From assembly GCF_026571515.1 (NCBI RefSeq), contig NW_026855269.1:62001-126000 (forward strand): DNA of 64,000 bases, given 5' to 3'. Within the stretch, counting starts at the first letter, position 1. Each line of letters opens with the position of its first letter. The position numbers were made by a program, and so were the translations under genes. This document shows, in pieces, positions 31,195-61,674 of this stretch. A model generated the notes under the pieces. That model made no database searches, had not been told where the DNA came from, and was given only the letters and a program-made list of their open reading frames with translations. Source of the DNA: Ruditapes philippinarum (Eukaryota).

Positions 31195-34100
31195 ATGTCG
31201 TGGTATTTGATTAGTTTGGTCATAAGCAGTACATTCGCATATGTTCATGGATGTTCATGTGTCCCATTTGATCCAGAGATAGATTACTGTGCTAGAACTT
31301 CAGGATTTGGTGCGTTTACACTTTTGTAGTCTTTTAAGAAGTTTTGTGATAAATGTTAACGATATAACATAGAGTAACGCCATCAGATTAATCTTTTTAA
31401 TTACAGAATTATATAAAGTTATTTTGCAAACTCAAGATTTTGTGCGTTCATACATATGTTTCTGTTTCAATGGTAAACTGCTTAGAATTTTTTAGTCTTG
31501 TGATATAGATTAACGATATATCATAAGGTAAATCAATATTAGATTATAATAATAACTTTCAGAACAATGTCCAATTTTTCTAAATGTGATACTGTGTAAG
31601 GTCTGTTGTGAATATGCGAAAATCAGAAACTCACCTTAGATCAACTACAAAGGCCTGGTTTAAAATTCGGTCCCATACATGTATAATGCTTCATTCAATA
31701 GTTTTAATATTTCTAAAACTACCAACATTTTTTTATTGCCATCAATACTTTATTATTTCAGCTGCTGTGTTTAAAATCAAAGATAATGGTACTGTTGTCG
31801 GTATACAACTGGCCTATGATGTTGATATCCTCTACAAATATGTATTTAAGGTAACTATCGTCTAGGCACTAATGTTATAAGAAGATTTTTTAAGAAAACG
31901 CTGAAAAGGGTCCATTCTAGCTAGAGGCTAGTGTCGAAAATCTCAAAAGTACCAGTATTGATATAATTCACAGACATTTGGGGTTTGGAGCTCAAAACGC
32001 CTTTAAAATCCAAATAAAATGCATATTTGTCAATCCCAGCACATGTACTGATCATATATATCAAAAAAACTTAATATAAGCCGTTTTGAAAAAAATTCAT
32101 ATTTCAACATCTATAATAATACACAAGATAAAAATGTTCGCCGGAAAAAATCCGCACCCCTACCGTCATAATCACCATGTATTTTAATCCATTTCCAATA
32201 TTTTCACATAATCCTTTGGTCCATCGACACAGAAGATATAATTCTTCACGATGATGGTCAATTTTAAACTTCAACGGTAATATAAACAACGCAACAGCCG
32301 AAATAAACATCAATATTATCGCCGTTTTTTTCCAACGACAAAATCTTTCGATAAATTTAATGGACCAGACGGCTATGAACGAAGCTATCCGATTATGTGG
32401 CCCCAGCTTTGCCGTGTGCAAAATGCGCAGCGCTTTTAAGTTTGGGAACCACATAATCGGATAGCTTCGTTCATAGCCGTCTGGTCCATTGAATTTATCG
32501 AAAGATTTTGTCGTTGGAAAAAAACGGCGATAATATTGATGTTTATTTCGGCTGTTGCGTTGTTTATATTACCGTTGAAGTTTAAAATTGACCATCATCG
32601 TGAAGAATTATATCTTCTGTGTCGATGGACCAAAGGATTATGTGAAAATATTGGAAATGGATTAAAATACATGGTGATTATGACGGTAGGGGTGCGGATT
32701 TTTTCCGGCGAACATTTTTATCTTGTGTATTATTATAGATGTTGAAATATGAATTTTTTTCAAAACGGCTTATATTAAGTTTTTTTGATATATATGATCA
32801 GTACATGTGCTGGGATTGACAAATATGCATTTTATTTGGATTTTAAAGGCGTTTTGAGCTCCAAACCCCAAATGTCTGTGATATAATTTACTTTCATTTC
32901 AAAGCAGATTCATTACAAATGCTAAAATGTAAGAAAATGATACTGTACATATAAAATCGAATTGTCAAAAACTATGTTTTCAAATTAATCTGAATATTGC
33001 TTCTAACAAATCGTTAAATACGTCTTAACTGTATACTGTAGCAATGCATGAGCGTAAACAATATTGGTTAGCTCAACGCAAAGGCTTATATTTAATAAAA
33101 GGATACCTTAAATCCGAATCTACAAGAATTGTTTCATTTTGTGTATACCAAACATTACTATAAAATAAAATATAAAGACAATTAACAGTAAGAAATGTGT
33201 AGTATTAACTAGAATTTATGCCTTTTATACTTGTTTCTTTTTGTATGTATGATACATTAATATATAATATAAAGACAATTAACTGTATTTTGTAAACTGG
33301 AATTGATGCTTAACATTACAAGAGCAAATGATAAAAATAAAGTATTCAACAAGCATTGTTTTCATGTCTGTCGCTTCAAGTTAATGATTTAGGAAGAAAA
33401 ATAAATCTATTTTGTAAGACAATTGTTATTTTTTGAAAACTTATTATTTAATTATTGTATTTTGTAATATTCATTACGTATCGGTGTATTATTATGGCCT
33501 AGGCTCCAAGTGAAAATGTAAAAACTGATAAACTGTATACAATGGTTGATGGACCTGCGTATGGGATTCGTTTACGTCCAGATAGTTTCTATATCATCAC
33601 AGGTAAGTCAAGGATAGGTGTTGTTAGTACTGGTTTTGTTGTTTACACGCATATATTTTCAATATTTTTAACATCATGACAGGCAAATAAAGGCAAGGTG
33701 TTATTAATTTTGAGCTTTTATTTTTAATTCTGGTATTACTTCATTACATGTTAGGAATGCGAAGCTTTCAATCGTTTAGATTGTTGACCCTTTTTTCTAA
33801 AATAAGTCTTCGTATATTTTGAGGTAGGTGTAACATAGAATGTTTCTTTTTAACTTGTAGGTGGAATATTTTATGCCATCTTAGTTATCTTAATTATTAT
33901 TACGAATGTAAGTTAATTATAATAATGATAATAATGGTACTGCATGCCCGTTTAAGTCAGTAGCATCTTTAAACATGACCATTACTTACTTCTTGTTATA
34001 GTTATAAAACTGTTTTTATACATGTATAAATAGTTATATATACAGCGTCATCAATTATTTGTTTATTGTTTGCTTTGTTTACAGGATATTTTCAACTAAG

Positions 34101-34230
34101 GGATGAAACACCTACGGTAATGACAACATCACGTTGTAGCACACAAGACTACTTCAAAGAGAATCCAATCGTTAGTGGTGACCCACCTCCGTGCGAGAGA
34201 TCTGATAAACATGTTGAATTTTCTGAATGA
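31195..34230 (+). CDS. Secreted single-domain TIMP/NTR-like protein, type B1 (149 aa). Exons 31195-31309, 31762-31850, 33503-33602, 34085-34230
   Basis: MSWYLISLVISSTFAYVHG-CSCVPFDPEIDYCARTSGF|AAVFKIK...YDVDILYKYVFK|APSENVKTDKLYTMVDGPAYGIRLRPDSFYIITG|YFQLRDETPTVMTTSRCSTQDYFKENPIVSGDPPPCERSDKHVEFSE*. GT-AG introns. The fourth Cys is replaced by Tyr. Confidence 0.87.
31969..32880. mobile_element. Foldback-type non-autonomous DNA transposon: 432-bp arms, 48-bp spacer, 8-bp TSD; P-superfamily-like termini
   Basis: Arms 31969-32400 and 32449-32880 are reverse complements with one mismatch (32358/32491). TSD atataatt at 31961-31968 and 32881-32888. Termini are CACAGAC...GTCTGTG. Confidence 0.93.
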
Positions 34231-35399
34231 TCAATATTATATCACTGCAATAAAAAGTTAAATTGAACCTTTTTCGAACAAATGTGTTAAGTAAGTACAA
34301 TCCCGCAAATGTTTACATTTCAACAGTCCTAATCCATCCTGTCATCAAGCTTGGAAACTTTTCTTAAATATTTTTAACATGTTAACATTGCATACAGTTA
34401 TACAATACCATTGATAATATGGACTTGTTTTGAACACAATTTCAATGGCAAAGCACTGTAAGCTTCAAAGACAAGAAAAGCAACAAATGCCAATAAATAA
34501 TATGAAAGAAACACCGATGGTTCTGCACAGGCACGCATTAATGGAGCTTTCCCACCAAATGAGGTTACATTGGTTTAAATGTGAATTGATAATTTATTCT
34601 TGCTCCCCATCGTGACCCAAACTATAAAACGTTATAAACGTCAACAAATTTATTGGAACACCAATATAAGTATCTACACGGTTCAACAAAGATATCCAAA
34701 TGAACCTATTTTACATATAGTGAATGTCTATGCGGTCTAGACAGAACAGGAAAGAAGTAAATCTCAAAGTGTTTTTTTTCTTTTGACCTTTTATTAGATC
34801 TAACTTAAGCACATTTTCTCAATTAAAACACAACAACTAATTGGTGACAAATACCCTGCAAACACGCAGTTCTTCCAAGGCATACATCAAACGGATATGG
34901 TGGGTCCGTTCATATCTGAAAACACAATGAATAATTAAAAAAATGAAAGAAACGAAAATGTATATACGACTGCCAAGACATTTTTTTTAAACAAAGTGAC
35001 ATCTGGTGATAATCAAGATAAAATAATTTTAAAGCAAAACTATTTTACTTTGACTGTGTTTGTCTATTAATAATAATTTATAGGAAATCAGCAGCTTTTA
35101 TAGACAAAACAAAAACTTTACGATATCAGTAAATGTGTAATAAAGTATCAAATTTATATTTAATGTTTCTAAGATGTAAGGTTATTAGCAAACATTTACT
35201 TCAGAGACATTATTCATTATCAGGCTTTCCTGAAAATAATGATTACTATAAAAACAATTGTCAATTTCTTCACACACAAAAACATCATGCAAATGGTATG
35301 TATTGTCGTCAAACTAAACTGTTGGTGGCAATTGTCGTACAATGAATTGGCGACTGATTCAATTTCTGATGACAAAATACTATACAAACACCAAAATAA

Positions 35400-35875
35400 T
35401 GACACCTTAATGTGAAAGTTTCGATAGTATAGTTTTCATCGGTTGCTGCTGATTACCGGTACATTTTGAACATGTAAACTCCGTGGGCAAAAAATCCTTG
35501 TATCTAAGACAGAGCTTTTCCAAATAAGGCTTTATATGGTTGGTATTACAGCTATACGCATGCGCAGCTACATAGTCAATACGACAGCCATTACATACAT
35601 GAAAGAACTCATCCAACCACTGAAAGTTATTATGTGCCGGGGTAGGACTTATGATTGGTTTTCCATTTATGTTTTCAATATACTTGCTGGGCAAACATGT
35701 TTATTTGGACAGCTTAGTCTGATTTGCTCAGAACTACAACATACTGCGCGGTGCTAAAAAATTTTCAATGGTATTGCTATTAGATTTCCAAATTAATGGA
35801 CGTTAATTCAGATATGTTTTGAAAGCAATGAGGACATTCCCGAACCGTAATCTGACGTTAGGTAGTTGTCAGTGA
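35400..35875 (-). pseudogene. Degenerate GH128 glucanase exon 2
   Basis: GKPIISPTPAHNNFQWLDEFFHVCNGCRIDYVAAHAYSCN aligns to the intact copies. It has deletions, IWLTEF is eroded to FLPTEF, the NEPD region is disrupted, and no intact exon 1 was seen. Confidence 0.85.
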
Positions 35876-36804
35876 AATCGAGCAAAAAATAAACAAAACG
35901 CGGTTCGCTTCTTGCCCTAGGCTTTCGTTATTATAAATGCTATTTTGTTTTGATTCTTACGGTTTATGTAATCGAATTCCCTCAAAATAAACTGGTAAAT
36001 AATGGAATGTCTGTTACACAATCAACAGGTACGATGATTATATTTATTATCAGACATTACGACAAACCATGAAAGAATTATATTTAACAAGTGTGAGATC
36101 TATCTATATTAACAGTTCATAATTATGTCAATTGCTTCGTTTGCATTTATCATTTCAAATATATACAGTGACCTTAAATCTAAAGATGAGAGCATTTACA
36201 ATTCTTATATAAAATATATATTATAAACTTACAATTATTAATGTAAGAAACTCTGAATTAATCCAAATTTGTATACAGGATTAACATAAACGATTAAATG
36301 AGACATCTTTATAGTAAAATGTTACCATTGGTGCAGCAGCAAATATACGTTATATGTCATTAAATGACAGATGTAAATTATATATAGACAGTCTACTTGT
36401 GTATTTTTGTATTGTCAAGTTTATTTGCGTGCTTATAAATAGGAAGATATAACTGTGATTTATGGAGAGAGTCATTTGTAATTTCGATGTGAATTATAAC
36501 TTTAGATTTGAATTGGATCCCGCAGATGACAGAAAGAAAAGTAAGTTTCAATATTTAAAATGGTATTTGTTCTTCTCATATGCTGTTGTTTACTGTTATT
36601 TCGGTACAAATATAAATAAAATGCAAATATTTTGTATATTATTATGTTTCATAAATTGCCGCAACAAAACTTCAAGTGATCGATTATAATTAAACAATTG
36701 AAAACCTTTTTTAAAATACTTGATTCACTTGACCAAAATAATTTAATATCGACAGTTCATCATTTCAAAAAGGGCACTATTACATCGAAAAACTTTCTTT
36801 TAGT

Positions 36805-37072
36805 TTATTTGTTTGTTTGTTTTTTTGTTTTGTTTTTTTTTATTTTGAGTCAGACCGACGCGTTTGAAGGTCATATGACGACTTTCCAGCTTAACAGATG
36901 AAGGAAGACCTCATGTACCACTCCGTGCATTATTTTAGGCACAAGCCGGCATCTGAGTAGAACCTCCGGCGTTTGATAGCTTGATACCTTCCCCACATGG
37001 ACAAATGTTTGATTGAACCTGCAGCTATAAGGGGCAAATGAGTCTACGTTTTTAACCGCTCGTCCACGGGAG
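36805..37072 (-). mobile_element. tRNA-derived mollusc SINE in the first intron of B2
   Basis: (tttg)n tail, core aggtcatatgacgactttccagctt...ggaagacc...ctccgtgcattattt, and degenerate pol III boxes near 37010-37070. Confidence 0.6.
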
Positions 37073-37154
37073 AAGTAACTATAATCAGTATTATGTGTAT
37101 ACTTTTTCATTATTCTTTGCATTTTTATTTTTGCTTTTTCATTTTCCGTTTCAG

Positions 37155-39269
37155 ATGTCATGTTATTTAATTACCTTGGTCATCTGCAGTATGTTCTCAA
37201 ATGTTTCTGGGGTGTGTATCTGTGCTCTAGTTGATCCGGGGATAGATTACTGCAATTTCAATCCAGGATTCTGTACGTTTACAAATATGTTTTAGTTTGA
37301 ATTTGATTGTACTCAAAAGCTATTGTCTTGTGATTCAGGATGCATATAATGAACATTATTACTAGTTAACATAATATTATAAAAGTTTATTTTTAAAGTT
37401 TTAGCTATAAAACTCATAATCCTAAGATGGTCCGGAACGCATTTCGTTGTTCAATAACTAAAATAAGATTAACTACGAGGGACAGTTAAAAGTATTAATC
37501 TATGTGACGCTGTAATTAAGTGATCTTTCTGTGTAAAATTGTTAGTCCAACCCATCAAATTACCCACCCCCTCCCTCAACCACCCTTTAGCTCAATGCAA
37601 AAGCACGTCTCTTCTATCACCAATCCCGATATTATATAATAGTGTTTTCAGCCAGCATTCTTGACGCACTTCGCAAGCGTTCCCTGTTTTGGCCTTACAG
37701 TAGTAATATCACTTTCAGATGTTGCTGTTGCTGGACGAACAGATCAGGGTTCATTTTTGATATCTGTTTCCGGATTTGAATAGCCCGGCCCATCTTCTAG
37801 CAATGGCATATGGAATAACACTATTCCCATAAATATGTAGCAGAGAGCATAGCCTCTTCAAATCTAAACTGATTAATACTTTACAAACTCCCATTTGTAT
37901 TCGGTCCACAGGTAATTATATAATGCTTCGTTCATGAGCTTTGTATATTTCTTATATAAACTTATAGTCATATGCAATTTTTATTGTTTGTTATGATGGT
38001 TTGTGATTACTATCTTTACTTGCTTATTCTAGCTGCTGTATTTAAAATCAAAGGCAATGGTACTGTTGACGGTTCTCAGTTAGCTTATGATGTTGATATA
38101 CTTTACAAATACGCTTTTAAGGTAATTATCATATGTAATATAATACTAGGGAAAATATTTATACAACATTTAAAAGAAAATTGCAACAGCTAGTACATAG
38201 ATTATTTTTAATTTGTTGTTTTCATTTGTTTGCTTGTTTTGTTTTTGTTTGTTTGTTTAGGGCAGTGCTCACAATTTACTAAAGCATAAGGTAAAAGTAG
38301 TTTTAAAAGCCAGTAATGTAATAAGGAGGAATAAAATTTAACTAAAGCATGCAATAGCATTCCCCGGGTCCAAAACAATTCCATACAAATTCATATCGAA
38401 CTAATCTTATTTTTAAATCCAAACTCCCCATAACAAAGCAATATTGAATTGAATTCCGTCTGGCCTCGTGTTCATTTTCAGAGACTAAAAACCTATAATA
38501 TAAATAAATATATTTTATTAGGTAACCATAAAGTTTTTGTTGGGTATTTAATCATATATATACGTACAATAATTAAATGTACACTTTGATCATGTAATAT
38601 TATATGATCTAGGCTCCAAGTGGAAATGTGGAAACTGATAGATTGTATACATATGCTGATGTAGCTAACTGTGGAGTTCGCTTACGTCCAGATAGTTTCT
38701 ATATTATCACAGGTAAATAAAGGATAAATATTTTAAGTATTTTATTGGAGCGTAAATTGTAAATATAAATTTTACAAAATGGAAGATGTGCATATTTTAT
38801 TGTTTTTAAATATCTTATATTTTTGTTTTCAATCTATTCATGTTTTACTAGATATTATTTCATGTTCTCCTAGTCTAAGATAGATATTTAAGTAGGCAAA
38901 TTATCTCGTGCTATCATAAGATGTGTTAAAATCACATAATCATGTGACTATTGTCTGTCAAAAAATAATGATAATAATAAAGACATAAATCCTAATGCAA
39001 CAATAATTCTTTTTTATGTTCCATATCAGGATCAATCATTTCATGCAAAATTAACTTATTTTGATCAAAACTTACATATATTCAGTGTCATTAATACAGC
39101 CGTTTATTGTGTTGTTTTTTTAGGATATTTTGAAGTAAGACCTGACAATCCTGCTAAAATGAAAACGTCAGAGTGTCAAATATATGACTACTACAAAGAA
39201 AACCCGATTGAAAATGGTGATCCACCTTCGTGTGAGAGATCTGATGAATATGTTGAAATTTCTAATTGA
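37155..39269 (+). CDS. Secreted single-domain TIMP/NTR-like protein, type B2 (150 aa). Exons 37155-37272, 38033-38121, 38613-38712, 39124-39269
   Basis: MSCYLITLVICSMFSNVSG-VCICALVDPGIDYCNFNPGF|SAVFKIKGNG...|APSGNVETDRLYTYADVANCGVRLRPDSFYIITG|YFEVRPDNPAKMKTSECQIYDYYKENPIENGDPPSCERSDEYVEISN*. All six Cys present and GT-AG introns. Confidence 0.88.
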
Positions 39270-39992: not shown

Positions 39993-40072
39993 GGCCAGAT
40001 AGCTTAGTCAGTAGAGCCGCAGTACGGTATTCCGAGGGTCTCAGGTTTGAGTCTCGGGCAGGCTGCACATTT
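39993..40072 (+). mobile_element. tRNA-derived SINE-like head
   Basis: A-box-like tagcttagtcagtagag and B-box-like ggtttgagtctc. The stems are degenerate. Confidence 0.45.
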
Positions 40073-40228
40073 AAAAAAATATTTTTTTTAATGGAGGTGT
40101 TTCAATCATTACTCATGGCGAAAAAGTATTTAGTGACTAAAGTATGTAAAGGATCAATGTAAAGGGATCCTTTTTAGGGGAAACCTCAGATGATTCTTAC
40201 AGTGTAGAATTACCGTCTGAATGCAAGT

Positions 40229-45110: not shown

Positions 45111-47031
45111 TTAACCAACAATGTGTGAGGAATGACCGTTCCCATTAAAGTTATTGTAGTAGTGTCCGATCATCGTGAGAGTGGAAGAATTATTGTGCAA
45201 AAGACTGGCGGCAGGATTTATGAATCCACCACCAAATATTCGCTTAACTCTCGCCATAAACCAAGAATACCTGTAACAAAATGAAAGGTTCTTATTGTTT
45301 ACGTTATAAGATGAGATATTGAAAAAATATCAGAGGATATTCGTTTGTTTTGATGACAATTTGTATGACATCATGAATGATAACATCATTTTGATAATCG
45401 GCATTCGGTTCCAATTTTGAAAACGTCTGAATAGTTAAATGGAAAATCTATAGAATCTGACGTATGATGAAAAGAAGCTTCGTATCTTTTAAGTTTAAAT
45501 AGACTATATAGCTTTCATAGAAGAAAGTGTTTTCTTATATAATATTTTTAACTTGCTTTACTATCTTGAAATACCATAAACATTCTCATTACCTAATGAG
45601 ATATATTCCTAAACATGACAATATAAATATATGAGATATAAGGTTATCAGGGCTGTAATCATACATCTACTTGTTAGACCTTATTTAATATCAAAATTTA
45701 TCAATATAATTATCATCAGAGAACAAGTAAATATTTTTATGAAAGGATAGAAAAAGGCATCCGTGAAGAACTTCCAAATGGCATAATACTGAAGATGAGT
45801 TTGATTATGTTCATGGGCGAAACTGGACATTGAAGATACCGTCCGCGGTCCCTAGCACAGGTTAAAGCTTAATTTAACGTTCTTAATGAAATTTTAAAAT
45901 TCTGAATTTAGAAACATCTGCAGAAGTGTTTCACAAAACGCTTTTTTCATTCCATTACCAAAGGTTCTTGTATAAAGTTTTGCCATAAAACAAACTAAAT
46001 GATGTGAGCAACAGTGATATGTACGGTGCTATTGTCGATTGCTTCATTGTCACTGTACAAATTATGACAAACAAGATCATCAAGACTTAATTATTTTACC
46101 TTAGCACGTAAGGCGCCGCCTCAAGTTTTGGTAACAGATTTCTCATTAAATGTAGTTGTTGGTGTTCGTCTGAAGAGTTCGGGCAGGCAAACTCGGTGAG
46201 CCAAATTTTCTTGTTGTATCTATGATACAGCTTTTCCAAATACGACATGATGTGATTGGCATTACAGCTATACGCATGCGCAGCTACATAGTCAATACGA
46301 CAACCATTGCATACATGAAAGAACTCATCCAACCACTGAAAGTTATGATGTGCCGGGGCAGGACTTAGAATTGGTTTTCCATGAGAATGTTTTTCAATTT
46401 CTGGCCAAAGATCAGCTACTTGCTGGGCAGACATGTTTGTTTGGACGGCTTGGTCGGGTTCGTTCAAAACCATAACATACGGTGCGCTGCTTGAAATATT
46501 CATGTGTATTGCGCCATTCCATTTAGATTTCCAAATTGTTGGAATAAATTCAGGCATGTAATGAAAGGAGTGAGGACATGCCTGAGTCACAGTCTGGTGG
46601 TAAGTAGTGAGGTCGTTTTTATAGTCATACCTGGAAAATATCAAAGAAATATTACGTGGTCAGTCACGACCTTGATTCTTTTTATTGTGTTTTCAATATC
46701 TTAAATAACGACTTAACTGTAAAGAATCTACAGGTAAAGATGTAACAACGGAGATAAATATAATGATGTAGTGTGATAATATTAGTACTAGTCATATGCG
46801 TACTGAACCTTTAATGTGAAAGAAAATTAAAGGAATAAAATAAAAGAAAATAATATGCAAAATAAATATAAACTTTACCTACCACCAAGCGATATTATTG
46901 AGATTTTTAAAATCGTCACACAATAGTCCTGAAGCCCACCCAACGACACCTTTCTTTTTAGATGCAAATGCAAACCCTGCGTACAAAAATACGCTTAATG
47001 AACAAACTAGTAGAAACTTGTCACTGGTCAT
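45111..47031 (-). CDS. Secreted glycoside hydrolase family 128 (Glyco_hydro_cc / Asl1-like) putative beta-1,3-glucanase, copy 1 (279 aa). Exons 47031-46883, 46630-46100, 45270-45111
   Basis: Signal peptide, SKKKGV start, WW|YDY, acid/base LNEPD, IDYVAAHAY, nucleophile IWLTEF, and R|YSWF...LTMIGHYY. These are clan GH-A motifs of GH128. The spliced ORF is 840 nt with GT-AG introns. Confidence 0.9.
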
Positions 47032-48085: not shown

Positions 48086-48682
48086 CATTTTTGTATATTC
48101 ATCGATGTTTGCCCTTTTATTGAAACATTTTTCTGTCGAACCAACATGTCCAATTGATTAAATTCATCTCTTTGTACCATGTGTCTGTACATACACTTGT
48201 ACGGTTAAATCCTTGTTGATGTATTATGTATATATGGATTTTTGTATCGTTTTCGCTTATCATCTATTTCAGGCGCTATCCTGGCATGTATCTTTGAAAG
48301 AGTTTCTTTGCTCAGTTTATTTTCACTTTGCTCAGGTTCGGCATTATATTAGTTTTTCCGATTCATAATCTTAGTATACTCTGTGGCTTTTATTTTAATA
48401 GTTCCATTGATTTATCGTTTATTATATTTTTCGAGTTGCATTTTCACTTTCTGCATTTCCGCTTCTTACACTTTAAATCACCAGGAGACTTGTATGACTT
48501 TGATTTGGTCGCTGTCAGTACTTAGACGGGGCACACGTCTCCTTTGTAATTTTCCTTGACATTCTTTTTTTTTTACCTTTTGTTTTCTTTCATAGGTTTT
48601 TGGCTTTTTGGACATCTCAAATACATATCAGTTCTTCCAGTCGCAGGTTTGTCCCAGAAGCATTTTTATTCTTGTAAGCTAT
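48086..48682 (-). pseudogene. Pseudogene paralog of the 221-aa ORF at 27747-28412
   Basis: Colinear similarity (atattcatcgat, caacatgtccaa, ttttgtatcgttttcgct, cattttcactttctgc, cacacgtct, tttggacatct). The ATG has become ATA and there are indels. Confidence 0.8.
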
Positions 48683-49069
48683 AACAAATTATTACAGATT
48701 TTCATTCCGAAATGTTTTGAAGCTCTGTTTTCATGAATCCACAACACCTGTATCTAAAACAATATCTACTTTTAACCTGATTATAAGAATAAATAGAGAA
48801 AAACGTTAATGTGAAATCGGACCCTTTTTAATTTCCTTCTAAAGCTTTCACTATTTTTAATCAAATACTAATGTTACCATAATGTCTATTTCTGTTGTAA
48901 ATTCCTGAACCATTATAACGTACAAGGAGACCGTGAATTAATATCCGCTGTTTTTCAGGTTTAATTGCGTAGTTAATAGATCATTAAGAGATCATAAAAG
49001 ACCCGTGAAACCATGGCGATAGTGAGCGAGACATTTATTTCCAAGGTTTTATAATGGTTATCTATGAAT

Positions 49070-49451
49070 TGTATCATAGTTTGGAGACCTTTCTGTTGAA
49101 AATGTGTCAGGGTTAAATCGTATACATATACATGTACAGAACGTTAACTGGAGTGCGGGTATTAGTTACCCGCACTCCAGAGCATGCCCATTGATTGGCT
49201 CATTTTTGCTGGGGTTTACATATTGTGACGGCAGAGAAAGGGAAAGCGACAGAAATGTCATATCCAGATGTTCGTTCATTGGTTCATTTTTGCCGGGGTT
49301 TCATATTGTGATACAGGGAACGTGTTTTTATATTTGACTATGATACAAAAGAGAAAGAACACCAAAACACTCGGCAATCTGATTTATACTCGGGGGCTAC
49401 GCCCCCTCGTACAAATCAGATAGCCTCGTGTTTCGGTGCTCTTTCTATTAC
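49070..49451. mobile_element. About 380-bp insertion with a long terminal hairpin (non-autonomous element, possibly Crypton-like)
   Basis: Absent from the paralogous site at about 28793. Hairpin agaaagaacaccaaaacactcggcaatctgattt...aaatcagatagcctcgtgtttcggtgctctttct. Confidence 0.55.
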
Positions 49452-50129
49452 TAATTAAACATAATGACACAAATGTAATATTATTTTACTTCCAGGTATA
49501 AGATAATCTGCAAATCTTCGTAAGCATGTTGAAATATGCAAATGAAATATGAATTGAAAGTGTGTGTGACCTATAATTTAAAGCTGAGAGCATTTATTAT
49601 TTATCATAAAATTAATCAACCTTCCAAATGGCTCTGTAATTGTATAAGTATATATCAGAAACTATCGAATGCCTAATATTTAATTAAATAATGCTTGGAA
49701 ATTATTTGAAAACAACGCCACCTGTCTAGTCTTTGTTTTAAATTCTCAAATTCAAATGTTATCATTATTGCACTTTTTGTGCATCAAACTTGATATATAA
49801 TTAAATAATATTATATGAAAACAATGCCCTTGGTTTTTTCTTTTATTTTTAAGTTTGAATTTTTTTTTGTGTTTAATCATGGATTTGAAATTGCGATTTA
49901 ATTAAAAGGAAAAGGCAAATGCAATTTCAATGTGAGTAATAACTTTAGATTTAGATTGGATTCTACATTGAACAGATGCTAAGGTGAGTACATGGATCTT
50001 GATAAAAATGATACCTATTTTCTCTTATACCGTTAATACTTTTCAGACCAACAAGAGATTTCATACAGATATTATTTCTATCATTCCTTTGAATGAATAA
50101 GTGTAAGTAAACTGCCAAAATAGCTACTG

Positions 50130-50161
<32 letters not shown>

Positions 50162-50323
50162 ATTACAGCCTTTGTGTAAATACTTCATTTTATTAGTTTG
50201 ATATCAACAGATAATGTTTTTAAAAAATCACTGTCAAAAAAAGAACGTAATAAATGTTCAGATAAATAATTGATATGAATGTCTTATTATTATTCTTAAC
50301 ATTGTCTTTTTCATATTTCCAAG

Positions 50324-52671
50324 ATGTTATTATATTTGGTGAGTTTTGTCATAAGCAGTACATTCGCATATGTTCATGAATGTTCATGTGCCCCATTTGA
50401 TCCAGAGATAGATTACTGTGCTAGAACTTCAGGATTTGGTGCGTTAATACGTTATTTTTACACTGCATAGAAGTTAAAGTCTTATGTAAAGTATATAGCG
50501 TTAAACAATCTCATTAATTGAATAATTTTATAGTTATTTTACAAAATTATGTCAAAATATTCAAAGATTTTCATGCTTATACTCATACTATCGTTATTTT
50601 ATTACTGCCAACAATGCTTGATTATTTTAGCTGCTGTGTTTAAAATCAAAAGCAATGGTACTGTTGTCGGTATACAACTGGCCTATGATGTTGATATTCT
50701 GTACAAATATGTATTTAAGGTAATTATTATTTAGACACTTATGTTATAAGTGTTATAATATGATATTTTATTTATTCTAAAAATGATAATTAAACATTAT
50801 AGCTAGCGGCAAGTGTATTAATCGCAACTGTACCACTATTGATTTTATTGGATTGCAGTTCTGTTACAAATGTTGCCAATGTACTGGAGCATATCGGATA
50901 ATTGAGACGTGAGCATGCCTAATGTCAAATTATCTTTATTGTTACCACAAATGTTAATGAAATATATGATACACATGAAATAATGTCTAAATGAAACATT
51001 AATATCTATAAAGACACTAAGATGAACAAAATGTATGATGTCAACAATAACTGATGCGAGAAACAACAGGAACAAATCATGAAATATGATACTCTGGAAA
51101 TGTCAAAATACACATTTTTGTCGTTTCTAGTTAGTGATCTGGGAAAAAAGTTTTTCATAAGGTAACTGTAATATAAGAAAAAGTTGAGTATTTAATCAAA
51201 TGTATTTTAGATATACATTTTAAATCGCTTTTATATTATGGTCCAGGCTCCAAGTGGAAATGTGATTAGTGATAAACTGTATACATATGTGGACGTAGGT
51301 ATGTGTGGAGTTCGTTTAAGTCCGGATAGTTTCTATATCATCACAGGTAAGTCAATGACAAGTAAAAAGGTTTCCTGCGGGGAATAATATAAACTATTAT
51401 AAAGATATTTCATTTAACTATTTTCAACATTGTTTTGGGAGAGGGGAATAAATAAACGTTTGTATCAGGAATATAGTTGACAATAATCGATCAAAATAGA
51501 AGAAGGTCTTTGGAAACTGGTGACCGTTGATGACCGGAGATGGTCGAACATAAAACAATTACATGTATTTCTTTTTAAGAAAATGATTAAATAAGCCTAC
51601 CATTTTACGAATAATTCTAAGCAAAAAATAAAATAAAGTAAACACACAAGTTTACGCAGAAAATATCTCTATTTATTATGGCAGATGTCACTACGAATAT
51701 TTTAATTTTGTAGATTTTCAGTATAAATTTATTGTTTGTGAAATTTGAGATACAAAGATAATTTTCAAATACATCATTCAAGTTTTTCCACCTTAAACGG
51801 TAAAATAATTATAAAAATTAGAAATATCACGTAATAGTTTTTTGTTCTTAATTAGGTGTAATTCTGGCTAATTCCCTAGAGGTAATTCCGTAACGTACCG
51901 ACAAACGGTATTTAGCCAGGTTTTCAAAAAGGTCAATTAACCAATCGTGTACGGTTTACAAATCACATGCTCCTCCATGTACCGAAAACAGGTCACGTGC
52001 TCCTCCATGCCTCAAAAGTTAAACGCGTACCAATACCCTGCGGTCTCCAGACCGCAGGGAATAAGTATAATTGATTTAGGTTTTGTTGTTTATGTGGGGT
52101 ATTGTGATTGGAATTGTGCAAAAATTCAAATTGAAAATACATCTATGTGAATTTCATTTCATTTTCAGGAACGCGAAACTTTTATTGATTAGATTTTTTT
52201 ATATCATATATTCATAAAAAAGTATTTTAATAGTCGTAGGCAGGTAAAGGATATATGTTTTATAAAGGTCCTCGAATGAAGAATATTTCGTGTCATCACA
52301 TTCAATATATTATGTTGATATTACCAACCAAAATAATAATAATACCGCAATCCCTGTTATATCAATGGCTTCTCTCATAATGTACATTTATTTCTAGTTA
52401 TTCGTGAAACTGTTCTTTTATATTCCATTTTCAAGATCAAAGATTCGTACTATTTTCAACTAATTTCAATAAAATTTTTACATAAACTATCATTAACACA
52501 GTCGTTTTTTTTTTTTGCTTTACAGGCTCTTTTGAATTAAGACCTGACAAGCCTGCTATAATGTTAACATCGAATTGTAATACAATAGACTTCTTCAAAG
52601 AGAATCCTGTCGTAGATGGTGTCCCACCGCCGTGCGAGAGATCTGATAAACATGTTGAATTTACTGAATAA
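50324..52671 (+). CDS. Secreted single-domain TIMP/NTR-like protein, type B3 (149 aa). Exons 50324-50438, 50631-50719, 51247-51346, 52526-52671
   Basis: MLLYLVSFVISSTFAYVHE-CSCAPFDPEIDYCARTSGF|AAVFKIKSNG...|APSGNVISDKLYTYVDVGMCGVRLSPDSFYIITG|SFELRPDKPAIMLTSNCNTIDFFKENPVVDGVPPPCERSDKHVEFTE*. aataaa at 52690. Confidence 0.88.
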
Positions 52672-53099
52672 TCAGTTTAATTTCACTACAATAAATCGGA
52701 GGTAATTCTTTCTTCAATCAAATCTGTTGAGAAAATACAATTCACAAAGTGTTGTCATTTTTGTTATTTCAACAGTCCCCATTGCCTTTTTATTATTTAT
52801 TAGCCATGTTTTTCTAGGCATAGTGGATAAAGGTATAGTGATGTCCTTGTCTGTTGTCAGATAACCACAATAACAATCACCAAATATAATGCAAGGGCAT
52901 AAATATGGGTAGCATATAACCCCTTTGATAGCTATCTTTAGGAAAACGAATGCGATAAGTCAGAGTGTCACATTCCTTTGGAATAGTGCGCATCTCTGCA
53001 ATAATATTATCAAAAGCGGTATATACAGCGTATGTAACACAGGAATATTAAAATGCGTATGAGAAGAATTTATTGATTTGTGATTACACAATACTTGAA

Positions 53100-56000
53100 T
53101 TAACCAACAATTTGTGACGAATGTCCAGTCCCATTAAAGTTATTGTAGTAATGTCCGATCATTGTGAGAGTGGAGGAATCATTGTGCAGAAGACTAGCAG
53201 CGGGAGTTATGAATCCACCATCAAATATTCGCTTAACTCTCGCCATAAACCATGAATACCTGCAATAATAAGATACGTTAGTTTTATTTCTTAATATTTA
53301 ATTATATGTGACATTGAAAAATCATCATAGTATTTATCGCTGTTACTCGGCTCGAACTTTTTGCGGTCCAACAAAATGTTATAGTTTCCACTAAGGAGGT
53401 CAATGTACTGTTTGTAGGACGGCTGTGGTCATCGTGAGTATCAAATTATTTAAAAGCTAACTGACACTTTTTTAATCTAGATGTAAAACGTTTGTATCAG
53501 GTATAATATTTAGGAAAAAGATAACAATTTTGATTTTATTTGTTTCCATATTGTACACGAGAATGCAAATCTTTTTCTCTGAATATAAAATTTCATTGCA
53601 ACGAGTAAGTGCTTAAATACATGTGTTATTATTTTTGCTCACAGAAAGAATTTGATAGTGAAGTCAAAAATGATAAATGTTCGTTTAAAAAATAAATCAA
53701 TTTCATTAACTCTCAATTTTGACCTTTGATTGCGACGATTTTAGGGTCATTTTCATAAGAAGAAGAAGAAATAGTTTATTTCGGTAACTTATACATGTAC
53801 AGTATCTCGTTACATACAATAATTACAAATATAATGATTCTGTGGTCACATGACAAAAGCAAAGAAAAAAATAATCAGAAGAACATAAAAAGTTTTAACT
53901 GATGACATTCTAACAGAGAACAGACAGCTGCAAATAAAGAAACAAAGAACATCACAATTTCATTATCATTCATAGAAATAAAAAGTTCCAGTAAGAAGAA
54001 AAACACCAAAAAAAACAAACAGAAAAGACGTGACAATAACATACATTTATTTGTTCTACTTTATTTACTGTCAAACCGTTTTGAGAATAACAATTACCTG
54101 ATAACAATTATAGATTGTTAAGAAAAAAAAAGAGAAAAAAATAAAAATCCCGATTGAATGTCCAAAACGTCAAAATTGAAACTGTTGTAGGCTCGGTTTG
54201 ACTAAGCCGGTTCAAGGACAGTATTGGAAAAGCAAGGTGTTTCTGCGCCCGATAGGACCGGTCCAAACAGAATTGAAACATGAAATGGTAAAATTTTGAG
54301 AAAAAAAAACATCCGCAGATGTGTTTGACAGAGTACTTATTACTTCATCGCCAAAGGTTCATGCATATGTTTTGTGATAAAATCAATTTACCTTTGTGAG
54401 TACAATGTAGTAATGGTAAAAACAATGTATTTGTCGAATGTTTCTTTATTGGATTCTATTATAGTTCACTAAAACTCATTTTTATTACCTTAGCACATAA
54501 GGTGCCGCCTCAAGTTTCGGTAACAGAGTTTTCATCAGATGCAGTTGTTGGTGTTCATCCGTAGATTTTGGACACGCAAACTCCGTGAGCCAAATTTCTT
54601 TATTGTATCTATGATACAGCTTTTCTAAATACGACATGATGTGATTGGCATTACAGCTATACGCATGCGCAGCTACATAATCAATACGACAGCCATTGCA
54701 TACACGAAAGAACTCATCCAACCACACAAAATTATGATGTGCCGGGGCAGGACTTAGGATTGGTTTTCCATGAGAGTGTTTTTCAATTTCTGGCCAAAGA
54801 TCAGCTACCTGTTGGGCAGACATATTTGTTTGGACGGCTTGGTCGGGTTCGTTCAAAACTAGTACATACGGTGCGTTGCTTGAAATATTCATGTGTATTG
54901 CGCCATTCCATCTAGATTTCCAAATCAGTGGAATGAATTCAGGCATGTACTGAAAAGAGTGAGGACATGCCTGAGTCACAGTCTGGTGGTAAGTAGTGAG
55001 GTCGTTTTTATAGTCATACCTGAAAGAAAAATCAAATAAACATGACGTGGTCCGCCCCTGTCTTGTATTTGTGAATTCACTTAATTGCCTACCATGGGTA
55101 ATGCATTACCTCCACTTTGAAGAGTATTCAAATAGAATATAGAATAGAATATATTGAAATTGAAGGGCGTGGGTTCAAACCCCAGTAGGGGCAACTTTTT
55201 TTTTTCTTTCTTTTTTTTCTTTTTAACATTATTTATGTATCTCTCTGATCCCTTGTGGAAGAAAAAAGGGTTTGATTTAAATTATATAATTATTGTAGGT
55301 ATTTATTCGCTAAATAATGCCAAAATTTATGGCAAATATGATACCAGATATTTTCAAAGTTTGATAAAATAAACACTTCACGGTAAAAGTATTTTATATT
55401 TCGCATGATCAACCAATATACCTTTAAAAAATTTAGGCAAACTTTGAAAACAGCCCCTTATTATGATAAATTTTAGGGATATTTTGAATAAGGCATTTTA
55501 GATAGGGAAATGGTAAAATTAGTGTTTAAAGTGGGTGGGGTAGAGTAACATTTTTATACATAATAAGAACATTTTGTTTAGAATCAAACATTTTGCTTGT
55601 GTAATTTGTAACCTGAATGTCATTATTTGTTTCTTAACAATGAGCAACAGAAAAACATTTTTTATAATGATGATATTACAGATTATTTAGAGTTTCCTCA
55701 TTTATGAAAATAAGCCCTTCTAATGGCAAAGTCTTAGTTCAGAAATATATCCATAACTCATAAACCGCACGGTAAATTTTATTTAAATTTTGCATACAGG
55801 TGACCTTGAAGACATATAACTGTCCTATGTTGTCAATTTTACAGTTCCTTGTGGTGCCCATTACCCATGGTCTACCTTTATCAAGAAACGAGAAAAAATG
55901 TACATAATCTACAAATAAAGAGGAAGTTAACAACGGACACTGTAATTATGTAGTCTGATGACACATTTACTAGTCAGAAAAAGATTGAATCTTCAATGTG

Positions 56001-56206
56001 AATGAAAATTTTTAAAAAAAAGAATAAATGATGTACAAATATAAAACATTTGCCTACCACCAAGCGATATTGTTAAGATTTTTGAAATCGTCACACAATA
56101 GTCCCGTAGCCCACGCAACGACGCCTTTCTTTTTAGATCCACATGTAAACCCTGCGTACAAAATTACGCTTAATGAACAAACTAGAAGAAACTTGTCCAT
56201 CGTCAT
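53100..56206 (-). CDS. Secreted GH128 putative beta-1,3-glucanase, copy 2 (279 aa). Exons 56206-56058, 55019-54489, 53259-53100
   Basis: Same exon sizes (149/531/160) as copy 1, with intact LNEPD and IWLTEF. Ends GHSSQIVG*. Confidence 0.9.
55091..55871. mobile_element. About 780-bp TIR element (MITE) in intron 1 of GH128 copy 2
   Basis: accatgggtaatg / cattacccatggt inverted ends. Its length accounts for the intron size difference (1038 versus 252 bp in copy 1). Confidence 0.6.
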
Positions 56207-56371
56207 TTCGTTTTTTGTTGTTGTTTTATTGTGAACTACACGTATATTCTATAATATCTTTATAACAAATGATAGTCCGAAAGAAACTTTAACAAACCGA
56301 TAAGACATGTCAAAAAACGAGTGCATGTCAGTGTAAGTGGCCAAATACATGAATAGATACCGTCGTTACAA

Positions 56372-56570
56372 AGACGGGACACACGTCTCAGTTATATTTC
56401 TTCTTGGCGTTTTTTTAACACTTTAATCTTTTTAAACGATTTCTTTCTTTCCTAGCTGTAGGCGTTTTGAACATTTCTTTTCTCAAGTTTCTTCACGTTC
56501 TAGGCTTGTCCTCGTACAAGTTTCATTTGTGTTAGGTATTATAAATCAGTATTTTATTCCGATCTTGTTT
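56372..56570 (-). pseudogene. 5' remnant of a third copy of the 221-aa ORF
   Basis: agacgggacacacgtct, ggcgttttgaacat, tttcatttgtgttag and attccgatc occur in the same order as in 28240-28442. Confidence 0.6.
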
Positions 56571-58497
56571 ACTATATGCTCCACAAACAAGTGTTTTGAA
56601 ACATTACACTTCGACGAATTGCCCATTGGTCCCTTAAAGTATATCATATCTGTATACGGAGAAAAATACAAATAACCAAATATGTATAACAAAACATTCT
56701 TTACGTTAACAAGCATAACAAACACTTTGTTCTTTACGCGTTGTTTTACGATTATTTTCAGCAACGTTAGTCTTACAAACTATTCGCTACATTATAATAG
56801 ATTATTACCATTCTGGAGGTCCTTTTAACTAGCAATAGAAATTTCCAAATTTTATTCTGTACCACGCAATTTGTGATTACAATGTAATTGTATCCAGATC
56901 AAACTCTCTTCATTGGCCATATAGACATAAAGGCAGAATGAAAACTGTTTCATACAATTTCCTTAAGTATTCCGGAATCTTAGATAATTATTGAAACACA
57001 CAAAAATATTAAAAGAAAACCAAAAGGATGACGATATAGAGGGTTGTGACTACATCAGTCTAAAAAATCTCATTTTTACATCAAAATACTTATTTTCGAT
57101 TTTAAGTAAAGAGGTTAAATTCTTAAAAGACAATCTGTTTTTGCATTGTTTTAGGTAAAGAAAAAATACTGATCGCTCTATTTCTTTTTAAGTTTTCACA
57201 AAGCAGAATAATAAGGCCGCCTTTATTGTGAATTATCTTACCTTTGAAAGAAGCACAAAAAAGTTTCGAGTGAGAATAATTCAAAAAAGAGATCGTTGAC
57301 TCATATTGATTCCATTTAAAACGTTTATTTTCTCATATTTTTAGATCATGCAAACTTTATTGTGTGAAACAATTTTATCCTGTCTATCTAAAAAGAAGAG
57401 CAAACAATCGGGCAAGAAAATACATAATGTATCAAAAGTGGCTTAATGTATTTTAAGAAAACTATTTATCTAAAATTAAACCACAATTCAAGCATTGTAT
57501 AATTATTCAATGTGCTTACTAAGTATTTTGAATAATATAAAATTCGGCCTTCAAACATTTATGATATATACACGTCCAATCATAAAATGTATAAAGCTTC
57601 CGAATCATTGTAAAATTATATACACGATTTAGCATTAACGAATTGATAAGGACATCTTAATTGCTAACTTTGCCATTAGCGCCCTGTTTATGCACCAAAT
57701 ATGCGTAATATTGGATTAAATAAGGCTTTGAAATTATATAAAAACAATGCCCCATTGTTTAGTCCTTATTTTTAATCATAATTTTTGTGTTATGAATATC
57801 AATTGTGATACCAAAGTATGAATTTTAAATCCAGATTTGAATAGGATCTTACTGAAGACAGAAATGAAAGTAAGTTTCGAGTATTATTTACATGTGTGTA
57901 AAAATAGATAAATACATTATATTAATGTGTGTATATATTTAAATATCTATAATTTCCATACTGTAACCATAGATCTTCTGTAATTATTTGCATTGTAATT
58001 GAATATTTTACTTGTTCCATTATAATTGTATAATTGTAAAAATGTGCTCTTCTTTTGGAGGAAATAAAGATATTATTATTATTATTTTGTTTTATAATTT
58101 ATTGATTTATTTTATATTTTTTATTATCATTTAGTTATTTATTTATTTTGCATGCAATTCCATCTTCTCTTGTTTTTGGTGTGTTTTTTTCGTTGTTGTT
58201 ATGTTTTATGGTGTTTTTTGTGTGTGGGGGTATATAAGTGGGTTTTTTCTGAACGAATATCACAATTGCTATTAACAACTATTAATTGTCAACATTTTTG
58301 TAAATGCTTCATTAGATTTCCAAGGTACCTTTATATTGAAAGAAAATGCATTTGAAAAAGACACAGTGATACGAAAAAAGTACTAGTCACTGAATGACTA
58401 AATTGTATTGTTTGCATTCCTATATTCCTTTGAATGAGTATTTTGCTTTTTCGTTCATGCAAACATTAATTTTATTTTATATTTTTTATATTTCCAG

Positions 58498-61400
58498 ATG
58501 TTATGTTATTTAGCTATCTTGGTCATAAGCAGCACTTTCTCATATGTTTGTGGTTGTACTTGTGCTCCATTCGATCCAGAGATAGATTATTGCGCACGAA
58601 CCTCGGGATTTGGTGCGTTTTCGTTTGAATTGAAATCTTCTTAGAAGTTATGGTCTTGTGGTATATCAACATATCGTTTTGTTTCGCTTGTTTTGTTAGT
58701 TTTTTCACTGATGTCTTTCCGATTTAGAAACAATTTTGTCATATCGATCCAACTCTTACTGGCTTTCTTAGATAACAGATAAGTTATTACCAATTTCTCC
58801 GTAAGTGACCGACTACAAATCCAACATAATTGGCGAGAGACAAATAGGCATTAGACTAAATTTTCGAAATCAGTTGTTATATTATAAGTCAAATAATAAC
58901 ATGGTGTACTTATGATCTGTAGCCGAAATACAAAGGTAAAAAGCCATAGTATTTATAATTTGTGGCTGAAATACAAAGCTAACACATCCATACGTTTTTA
59001 AGATACACCCAATCAAGACATTGGGGGACAATGGGGAACCTTAATATTAAAACGCATTATGTTTGAAGAGGTTCCTAATTATTTCTAATAATGTAACTTT
59101 TTCGTCACTTATATTACCTTTGTTTATTTACTTTTTATCACCAATTTTGTTTAAATTTGTATTTGTTATGCATGTAATTTTGACTTGCCGCAAAAATTGT
59201 ATTCATATCTGATTTTGCCACATGGGTCTAAGATATTCCGGGTGAAAAATAAATAAACGTATACATGTACTATCTAAAGCAAAATAATTATTGTTTGTAA
59301 TGGCCTTCATTTCTTGATTATTTTAGCTGCTGTGTTTAAAATCAAAGGCAATGGTACTGTAGAAGGGTTTCAACTTGCCTATAATGTTGATATACTTTAC
59401 AAGTACGTTTTTGAGGTAATAATCATTTTCAATAAAAATGTTATGAGAAAATATATACATGCACAATTTAATTATATAAAGCATTGAGGTGTCTATTATA
59501 TCTATAGTGTTGTAAATATTTCACTCTTAATTTTATTGAGTTTCCTGTTGGAGCAGTTCCATTTCAAATGCAGGGAGTAAGAAGAAATAAAAAGTAAGCG
59601 TACTCTAAAGGAGAAAACAATGGGCGGAAATAAAATATATTTATGTGTAAATCAATTCTGTTTTATGTCCAGACAAAATAACGAATTTACTTGGTACAAA
59701 AAATTCAAAGAAAGTATTACGTTTTCAATTATAAGGTCATAAAATTTGGAATTGTTCTAAATGTTCTATTGTGTTCCAGGCTCCTGGTGAAACTGTGAAC
59801 ATAGATCAGTTATTTACTGCTACATCTGGATCTATGTGTGGAATTCGCTTACGTCCAGATAGTTTCTATATCATCACGGGTAAATGAAGATTTTTTTTTG
59901 AACATTTGAATTATACCACATCAAAGATAAAGAGGATATTGAATAAGTGTAGGTTCAGTACTGAATTTATTGAACAAGTTGAATATAGTTATATCACGCA
60001 AGCCTCTGGCGACTATAATATTACTTAAAAGAATAAGTTCAATAAAAATTTAGTAATGAACCTTCACGAATATAATATTTTATTTATCACATATCATCCA
60101 AAATAACAACTGTTACTACGGTGAAAAGAAATGGCTAAGAACGCACTTAAATTGCAACGTTAACATGCAGCGCGTCTTTATATGTTTGTATAATGCAAAT
60201 GACCACTTTAAAACATATGAACTTCGACTATAATATTACTTTACAGAATGGGTTCAATGAATTTAGTAATGAACCTTCAAGGATATAATATTTTATTTAT
60301 CACATATCATCCAAAATAACAACTGTTACTACGGTGTAAAGAAATGGCTTAGAACGCACTTATAGTGCAACGTTAACATTCAGCGCGTCTTTATATGTTT
60401 CTACAATGCAAATGACCTTACGTTAAAATATATGCACGGCCGTGCAATGCCATTTTACGGAGCCGCAGAAGCGGCAAGGATATGTGATAAATAACGATAT
60501 GAGAGTGAAACAAATGTGTGTGTGTTTTTTGTATATCATATAAATATACATTAGTAATGAACCTAAAATGACATTATGCAACAACATATCAATACAATTT
60601 TTCTGAATGCGAAGCTTTCAAAATAATATTTAGATCTCTCTTTCTATGCCAAGCATAGAAGTTGGTATCTCCTACGTAGAAGTTATCCTTTTTATAGAAC
60701 TTTATAAATTGGCACCAGTACGCACGCAGTCGTTTATACCTTTTGTTTTACATACGCTGTATCATCAATACAATCGTTTAAACCTTTTGTTTTACATACG
60801 TTGTGTCGTTAATACAGCCGTTTATTCTTTTTGTTTTACATATGTTGTGCCGTCAACAAAGTCGTTTATGCCTTTTGTTTAACATACGTTGTGCCATTTA
60901 TACAGTCGCTCATACCTTTTGTTTTACATACGTTGTGCCGTCAATACAGATTTTTTGTTTTGCATATGTTGTGCCGTCAATAAAGTCGTTTATACCTTTT
61001 GTTTACATACGATGTTCATCAATGAAGCGGTTTAAACCTTTTGTTTTACATACGTTGTGTCATTTATACAGTAGATTAAACCTTTTGTTTTACATACGTT
61101 GTGTCATTTATACTTAAAAGGTTGTCTATACCTTTTGTTTTACATACGTTGTATCATTAATGAAGCCGTTTAAACCTTTTGTTTTACATACGTTGTATCA
61201 TCAATGAAGCCGTTTAAATCTTTGTTTTACATATGTTGTGTCATGTATACAGTCGTTTAAACCTTTTGTTTTACATACGTTGTATCATCAATGAAGCCGT
61301 TTAAACCTTTTGTTTTACATACGTTGTGTCATTTATACAGTCGTTAAACCTTTTGTTTTACATAGGTTGTATCATCAATGAAGTCGTTTAAATATCTTGT

Positions 61401-61674
61401 TTTACATACGTTGTCTCATTTATTCAGTCGTCTATACCTTTTGTTTTACATATGTTGTGTCGTCAGCTTTTGTTTAACATACGTTGTGTCATCAATAAAG
61501 TCGTTTATATCTTTTGTTTGTTTTACAGGATATTTTGAAGTAAGACCCGATAAGCCTGCAAAAATGGTAACTGCACTATGTTACACACAAGACTACTTCA
61601 AAGAGAGTCCTGTCGTAAATGGTGACCCACCGCCGTGCGAGAGATCTGACAAATATGTTGAATTTTCTGAATGA
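58498..61674 (+). CDS. Secreted single-domain TIMP/NTR-like protein, type B4 (149 aa). Exons 58498-58612, 59327-59415, 59780-59879, 61529-61674
   Basis: MLCYLAILVISSTFSYVCG-CTCAPFDPEIDYCARTSGF|AAVFKIKGNG...|APGETVNIDQLFTATSGSMCGIRLRPDSFYIITG|YFEVRPDKPAKMVTALCYTQDYFKESPVVNGDPPPCERSDKYVEFSE*. Canonical CTC start and six Cys. Confidence 0.9.
59950..60495. mobile_element. Intronic insertion with an internal tandem duplication of about 215 bp and inverted motifs
   Basis: cgactataat...aatgcaaatgacc occurs at about 60010 and 60226. atttatcacatatc and gatatgtgataaat are inverted copies. Confidence 0.5.
60725..61520 (+). repeat. About 44-bp minisatellite (about 18 units) abutting the exon-4 acceptor of B4
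   Basis: Unit ttttacatacgttgt(a/g)tcat(caatgaa/ttataca)g(c/t)cgtttaaaccttttg. Confidence 0.92.

Follow-up and report, generated by a model that had tools for sequence, protein, structure and literature searches.

Accelerated divergence of the predicted protease-contact ridge in four tandem TIMP-like genes of the clam Ruditapes philippinarum

Tissue inhibitors of metalloproteinases (TIMPs; family I35 of MEROPS) have divergent relatives in clams. This work deals with four such genes, designated B1-B4, of Ruditapes philippinarum. They lie in a stretch of 64,000 nucleotides (contig NW_026855269.1, positions 62,001 to 126,000) that is called the window below; positions are counted within it. The part studied extends on the forward strand from 31195, the ATG of B1, to 61674, the stop codon of B4.

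The closest described class is that of "pseudo TIMPs", divergent TIMP-like genes expanded in Heteroconchia, with 11 members in Mercenaria and 18 in Dreissena (PMC10755359). The class is defined by Pfam, PANTHER and PROSITE matches without a SMART NTR match, and no function is given for it (PMC10755359). Both pseudo TIMPs and the B genes are divergent, TIMP-like and expanded in clams; the B genes are at most candidate members of the class, and their Pfam match is below the threshold. The terms "Ruditapes" and "positive selection" each have 0 occurrences in the same paper (PMC10755359). Gene and accession identifiers of the B genes were not found in the literature searched, whose scope stopped short of subscription journals and supplements (supplementary expression tables may hold them). 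Within the same scope, no selection study on TIMP paralogues was found by title in literature listings.

Reactive-site hypervariability of duplicated protease inhibitors is well known, for example, in ovomucoids. The serpins SERPINB3/B4 resemble the B genes in a retained scaffold, a fast-evolving enzyme-contact surface after tandem duplication, and a choice between self and foreign targets that was left open (PMC4136820). The B genes differ from them in their TIMP scaffold, a ridge made of several loops, and weaker statistics. In the I84 inhibitors of a razor clam, no selected sites were detected (PMC9198434). B1-B4 are a new case of this known hypervariability; both the family and the phenomenon were known before. 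TIMP-like genes have expanded in clams without a known function, and four close copies that differ mostly at the positions governing selectivity of human TIMPs provide a natural comparative set, small as it is, for assays of specificity on enzymes of clams and pathogens. Such a set could be used to probe the old self-versus-foreign question of hypervariable inhibitor sites on a TIMP scaffold.

The B proteins are like TIMPs in having a signal peptide, Cys1-X-Cys3, six cysteines in TIMP spacing and an OB barrel, and in predicted wedge binding through residues 1-6, the C-connector and the EF loop. Unlike TIMPs, they have no C-terminal domain and a short AB hairpin, their identity to TIMPs is 18-25%, they score under the Pfam cut-off, and they are known from sequence and models. 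Single-domain TIMPs occur in cnidarians and nematodes (PMC9409782, PMC4860685). The scallop byssal protein Sbp8-1 is also the product of a duplicated bivalve TIMP-like gene, but it has extra free cysteines and polymerises, and no inhibition by it was observed, whereas the B proteins have six mature cysteines and none extra (PMC5975577).

Divergence of the predicted contact ridge

B1-B4 encode a leader of 19-20 residues and a mature protein of 130 residues, with mature identities of 66-79%. A preliminary description of 31195-61674 listed nearly invariant scaffold motifs and three variable patches: the N-terminus, the loop before Cys4 and the segment around Cys5. All of the motifs are present; 71 of the 130 mature columns are invariant and 59 vary. 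Within the patches 15 of 19 columns vary, versus 44 of 111 elsewhere, and the mean pairwise difference is 0.60 versus 0.23 (block permutation p=0.0002, with the patches chosen by eye after seeing the data). The N-terminal patch does not belong with the other two: residues 2, 4 and 5 have a ratio of non-synonymous to synonymous rates (dN/dS) of 0.63-0.75, the same as background, and we rejected the N-terminus as an accelerated patch.

An independent definition of the interface was obtained by co-folding B4 and the catalytic domain of a clam matrix metalloproteinase (MMP). The complex score is 0.84, and the best of three controls is 0.01; B4 is the only copy modelled in a complex. Among solved pairs 51 of 78 attain the mark used for this score, and among mismatched pairs 2 of 108 do so (39 of 65 and 2 of 126, respectively, for eukaryotes). 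Contact agreement between runs is at least 98%, and the predicted local distance difference test value (pLDDT) of the partner is at least 84. The predicted interface comprises 24 mature residues (1-6, 15, 17, 33-35, 63, 65-69, 84, 86, 88 and 98-101). The model suggests that B4 would bind as a wedge that places Cys1 at the catalytic site, the specificity pocket being taken up by residue 2. The core epitope of human TIMPs is formed by residues 1-4 and 66-70 (PMC3779175), and the B4 interface is in line with it (PMC3779175, PMC5621753). Specificity determinants of human TIMPs include residues 2, 4, 68 and Thr98 (PMC9409782), as well as Met66, Glu67 and Leu34 (PMC8902619); mature residue 99 of the B proteins aligns with the residue before Cys5 (TIMP-1 Thr98). 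The MMP used is encoded by an intronless open reading frame of 483 aa (L031:1336-2787, G000:C699) with catalytic and hemopexin-like parts and the pro-region motif PRCGCED.

Eighteen of the 24 interface residues vary, compared with 41 of 106 residues elsewhere (Fisher p=0.0013). With cysteines excluded, the interface has dN/dS 0.94-1.10 versus 0.21-0.26 for the remainder in six of six settings (likelihood-ratio statistic 42-46). The predicted ridge is specifically fast, about fivefold over the rest of the protein. A comparison with 16 distant homologues points the same way: among 73 columns that are freely variable in them, the mean difference between B1-B4 is 0.76 for 11 ridge columns and 0.29 for the 62 others, although this set of 11 was partly selected post hoc.

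The claim that the copies diverge "mainly" on the ridge goes too far. The three patches hold 30% of the pairwise amino-acid differences, and the interface, which makes up 18% of residues, holds 32%. Loops 50-59 and 84-95 vary too, with mean differences of 0.43 and 0.40; for loops 27-34, 50-59 and 84-95 dN/dS is 0.23-0.46, in each case significantly below 1. The interface excess sits in exons 3 and 4 (dN/dS 1.1-1.6), while interface residues of exons 1-2 have 0.56-0.77, or 0.20 without B2. On the C-connector (63-68) and the EF loop (96-103) the proposed correspondence between variation and the TIMP contact ridge stands; on the N-terminus it does not. Cys1, Cys3, Cys100, Gly33 and Arg88 are invariant on the interface, and so is Cys69 if a Tyr of B1 in the assembly is set aside.

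Selection on the ridge and the possible target enzymes

Under model M8 fitted to the four genes, 7.5% of codons evolve at dN/dS 4.3; the tests give p=0.004 for M7-M8, p=0.007 for M8a-M8 and p=0.06 for M1a-M2a. The observed statistic was reached in 0 of 79 null simulations and in 2 of 85 with double-nucleotide changes simulated. Diversifying selection had been proposed before, with a PAML-type comparison of M7 with M8 as its check; the comparison agrees on the four genes, and the excess of dN/dS over 1 is fragile across settings. The top M8 sites are 99, 63, 96, 101, 68 and 103. When M8 sites with posterior above 0.5 are mapped on the structure, six of nine belong to the predicted interface (P=0.0013, or 0.018 when only variable columns are counted), and 96, 103 and 56 lie outside it. 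We consider episodic selection on the ridge somewhat more probable than its absence; dN/dS above 1 there is borderline.

Our preferred reading, to which we give a probability of about one half, is that B1-B4 are tandem-duplicated secreted putative metalloprotease blockers, whose ridge diverged to fit different enzymes, likeliest the clam's own MMPs, ADAMs and astacins. After duplication the C-connector and the EF loop would have diverged, so that each copy would suit another enzyme. The change probably came episodically, through positive selection that acted on some 6-8% of codons (63, 68, 96, 99, 101, 103), mostly outside the B4 lineage, with the scaffold and Cys1/Cys3/Cys100 presumably held by purifying selection and the 5' half partly homogenised between B1 and B3. 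The clam genome has 17 Peptidase_M10 matches on seven contigs (at least eight loci) and at least 41 astacin matches on 26 contigs, all lower bounds. Since clam metzincins are plentiful, specialisation on host enzymes is a sufficient explanation.

A number of points weigh against this reading. No result here identifies host enzymes as the targets. Solved TIMP-MMP complexes exist, so the pass of the B4-MMP pair may show likeness and not binding, and such a test can also be passed by a protein closely related to the true partner. The PF00965 cut-off of 23.1 bits in Pfam is not reached by B4 (19.6) or by a B4-like copy on contig C5307 (17.5), and B1 and B2 have no match; this cut-off is a score threshold rather than a biological defining feature. 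The codon models were fitted with a GY94-type program written for this analysis to 4-7 sequences, orthologues not among them. Of 12 settings that differ in data and frequencies, five give p<0.05 for M8a-M8, five for M7-M8 and none for M1a-M2a; with double-nucleotide changes in the model, p is 0.036, 0.060, 0.053 and 0.24 in four settings. A literature-defined set of core and EF residues has dN/dS 1.65 and 1.38 (p=0.11 and 0.23). Branch-site tests give p 0.04-0.23 with the foreground picked post hoc. Finally, the mean dN/dS of the independently defined interface is about 1 and not above it (p 0.68-0.97 versus 1 in all settings). No orthologues for the codon models were found: the copies that word searches yielded, 2 among 49 candidates and 3 among 129, were all from Ruditapes, and the nearest sequences of other species are 30-36% identical.

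An interface mean that is indistinguishable from 1 is also what relaxed constraint would give. In that case the proteins would have a non-inhibitory, matrix or structural role, comparable to that of Sbp8-1, and an unused ridge would drift neutrally on a retained scaffold. A non-inhibitory bivalve TIMP does exist (PMC5975577), the residues before the mature N-terminus of B2 and B3 are atypical, and the site-model signal weakens as B4-like copies are added. However, the invariant interface residues named above (Cys69 with the same proviso) and the constraint on other exposed loops (0.2-0.5) speak against drift. So do the conservation of the ridge in the B4 lineage (dN/dS 0.39-0.41 versus 1.6-2.2 on other branches) and the rejection of neutrality by M8a-M8 on the four genes. 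We consider relaxed constraint unlikely.

Assembly errors together with gene conversion could in principle fake the ridge excess. Most or all of the compared sequencing runs disagree with the assembly at B1 codons 67, 69 and 101 and at codon 59 of B2. In particular, the Tyr codon at 33560-33562, read earlier as part of a variable motif MVDGPAY, is contradicted by the runs: 33561 reads G, giving a Cys codon, at full depth in four of four runs from four studies. A loss of the Cys1-Cys70 disulfide in B1 is ruled out by the Cys in these four runs. As to conversion, B1 and B3 share a near-identical 5' half, with no synonymous difference in exon 1, and the fit improves when the 5' and 3' halves each receive branch lengths of their own (twice the log-likelihood difference 24.3, five parameters); these two observations point to gene conversion between the 5' halves of B1 and B3. 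A PHI-type recombination test, by contrast, is significant in one of six runs. The ridge contrast survives masking of the four codons (0.98 versus 0.20; M8a-M8 p=0.013) and separate fitting of the halves (M8a-M8 p=0.018); a contrast between invariant scaffold and variable patches is seen within exon 3 alone and within exon 4 alone. The fits with masking and with partitioning largely refute the artefact explanation, which we consider highly improbable.

The preliminary description took the pattern as directed against foreign rather than self proteases. This does not follow: host metzincins abound, and duplicates specialised on different host enzymes would leave the same signature. An arms race in which the opponents are pathogen or parasite metalloproteases and the array is an immune repertoire is possible though doubtful. 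It agrees with a birth-and-death pattern: three further copies, two of them broken, are found in the genome. C5307 carries an intact B4-like copy together with a broken one, and on C5593 there is a B3-like copy whose exon 4 contains a stop; these three may be either alleles or paralogues. Between 48552-57878 of the window and G000:C5593, flanks are mostly 2-6% divergent, and B3 exon 2 to exon 4 is 15-30% divergent; the similarity stops just past the 5' exon of B4, and no B4 coding exon is present in the remaining 14 kb. Five of six non-synonymous mature sites of B1 in other runs (34, 35, 67, 69, 101) lie in the predicted interface, in a count that covers 40 of 353 rows and may include cross-mapping between copies. 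The neighbours are Mab-21/cGLR-type and glycosyl hydrolase genes, and bivalve TIMPs have been tied to haemocytes and defence (PMC10755359). Copy turnover, interface polymorphism of B1 and immune-type neighbours lean toward defence. Against foreign targets, B4 fits a host MMP in the predicted complex, host metzincins are numerous, and for SERPINB3/B4 the same signature was ascribed to endogenous or exogenous proteases (PMC4136820). The two non-synonymous sites listed for B2 (59 and 102) are outside the interface. A narrow literature search on TIMPs versus bacterial metalloproteases in oysters found none. TIMPs have no known inhibitory action on thermolysin-family enzymes, the main metalloproteases of Vibrio.

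Gene structure, family membership and leaders

B1-B4 are four intact tandem single-domain TIMP-like genes, each with four coding exons and GT-AG introns (Table 1). B1, B2 and B4 correspond to annotated "uncharacterized" proteins of R. philippinarum. Cysteines occupy mature positions 1, 3, 13, 69, 100 and 119 in B2-B4, and B1 differs by Tyr69 in this assembly. In all four genes the stop codon follows 11 residues past Cys119, so that the C-terminal TIMP domain with its six further cysteines is not present.

Table 1. Positions of B1-B4 and of their ridge elements in the window
Feature	Position	Strand	Details
B1	31195-34230	+	exons 31195-31309, 31762-31850, 33503-33602, 34085-34230; 149 aa; identical to P0001 (LOC132742696)
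B2	37155-39269	+	exons 37155-37272, 38033-38121, 38613-38712, 39124-39269; 150 aa with the ATG given here; 5' exon up to 36540; match: P0031 (LOC132742697)
B3	50324-52671	+	exons 50324-50438, 50631-50719, 51247-51346, 52526-52671; 149 aa
B4	58498-61674	+	exons 58498-58612, 59327-59415, 59780-59879, 61529-61674; 149 aa with the ATG given here; 5' exon up to 57869; match: P0003 (LOC132742704)
N-terminal Cys1-X-Cys3-X	B1 31252-31263; B2 37215-37226; B3 50381-50392; B4 58555-58566	+	not accelerated
C-connector, mature 63-69	B1 33542-33562; B2 38652-38672; B3 51286-51306; B4 59819-59839	+	fastest-evolving patch
EF-loop region, mature 96-103	B1 34123-34146; B2 39162-39185; B3 52564-52587; B4 61567-61590	+	
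Extra Val codon of B2	37212-37214	+	between V-x-G leader end and Cys1; cleavage site inferred

Public sequencing runs were compared with the genes; X15, X16 and X17 appear to be RNA runs, although none of the runs listed is recorded as RNA, and the tissue is unlabelled. The predicted introns of B1 and B2 are skipped in contigs of X15 and X16, which come from two studies, and spliced joints of B4 are found in X15 and X17. The B1 and B2 joints are not listed for two DNA runs of the same comparison. Expression of the exact B3 copy was not found in these runs, as its exon 1-3 joints in X15 derive from a B1 contig; runs X19 and X20 have little or no cover of B3 and B4. Contig depth is unsuited to ranking expression among the copies.

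The best sequence match of the B proteins in PDB is N-TIMP-3, with a weak E-value of 0.04. A HMMER scan gave 27 matches, most of them with PF00965; the nearest are short TIMP-like proteins of Mercenaria and Ruditapes, about 30-36% identical. One match, P0011 (a bacterial S8 peptidase), was dropped as spurious. Pfam scans of two single exons of B4 gave no match. The genome scan with PF00965 gave one match and missed the B genes, so the family size cannot be counted that way. The predicted model of B4 has pLDDT 78 and a predicted template modelling score of 0.70. A Foldseek search with this model has N-TIMP-1 as the top match (E 1.6e-6), and the 19 top rows are all TIMP chains; superposition on N-TIMP-3 gives Z 12.8 and a root-mean-square deviation of 3.1 over 112 aligned residues within 22-145. 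B4 is predicted to have the N-TIMP fold (an NTR/OB-fold inhibitory domain). By homology, the six-cysteine spacing would correspond to three disulfides.

Signal cleavage usually follows a small residue. The leader of B2 is one residue longer than others, with Val after the V-x-G that closes the leaders of B1 and B4; the X16 contig over B2 exon 1 (37155-37272) has 0 other letters and 0 gaps. Residue -1 is Gly in B1 and B4, Val in B2 and Glu in B3; in the other homologues shown it is Ala, Gly or Ser. The Glu of B3 (50378-50380) is unfavourable for cleavage, and the C5593 copy has Gly; it may be an error, an allele or a second N-terminal variant. If the small-residue rule holds, mature B2 would start with Val-Cys1.

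An extra Ala before Cys1 of N-TIMP-3 raises Ki for MMP-1 and MMP-2 from 1.7 and 2.7 nM to 800 and 970 nM, and the engineered [-1A]N-TIMP-3 keeps inhibition of ADAM17 and ADAMTS-4/-5 at 1.7-34 nM (PMC3003256). B2 is like it in one predicted extra residue before Cys1. It differs in being natural, in having Val, which is absent from the tables of PMC3003256, in a cleavage site that is predicted, and in a scaffold far from TIMP-3. By analogy, B2 cleaved one residue early would be steered away from MMPs; should cleavage occur ahead of the extra Val, an engineered route to ADAM/ADAMTS selectivity would have its natural equivalent in B2. Each of the four ridge elements is on an exon of its own, and one may imagine that conversion could recombine them. 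A combined scenario, in which an anti-pathogen TIMP repertoire has its exon-borne ridge elements reshuffled by gene conversion and B2 has switched enzyme class like [-1A]TIMP-3, seems to us distinctly unlikely.

Neighbouring loci

The window contains three other single-domain TIMP-like loci, designated type A, at 12132-13870, about 16500-17000 and 19781-22990 (+). Two of them, the first being P0010 (LOC132742695), consist of four coding exons; the remaining one is partial, and its exon 4 has a stop. Exon 4 of type A is basic and Arg-rich, whereas the B proteins are acidic. An eighth TIMP-like locus at about 24300-26456 (-) starts with Cys-Gly-Phe, and Cys3 is apparently lost.

B1, B2 and B3 are each followed, in tail-to-tail arrangement, by Glyco_hydro_cc (PF11790) exons at 35400-35870, 45900-46660 and 54270-55100 (-), the first of which is decayed. 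These exons and the TIMP genes appear to have been duplicated together, and contigs of RNA-type runs cover the exons. A Mab-21/cGLR-type gene at 62311-63137 (-) adjoins B4, and at least four copies of this type are interspersed with B4-like genes at 4300-49100 of G000:C5307. A 223-codon open frame with no Pfam match is found at 27747-28418 (-) and 48087-49069, within a duplicated segment of which one copy precedes B1 and the other B3. Intron 2 of B1 contains a 914-bp, 97% palindromic element (31968-32881) with very high summed depth in DNA runs, which is likely to be a transposon of the foldback or miniature inverted-repeat (MITE) type.

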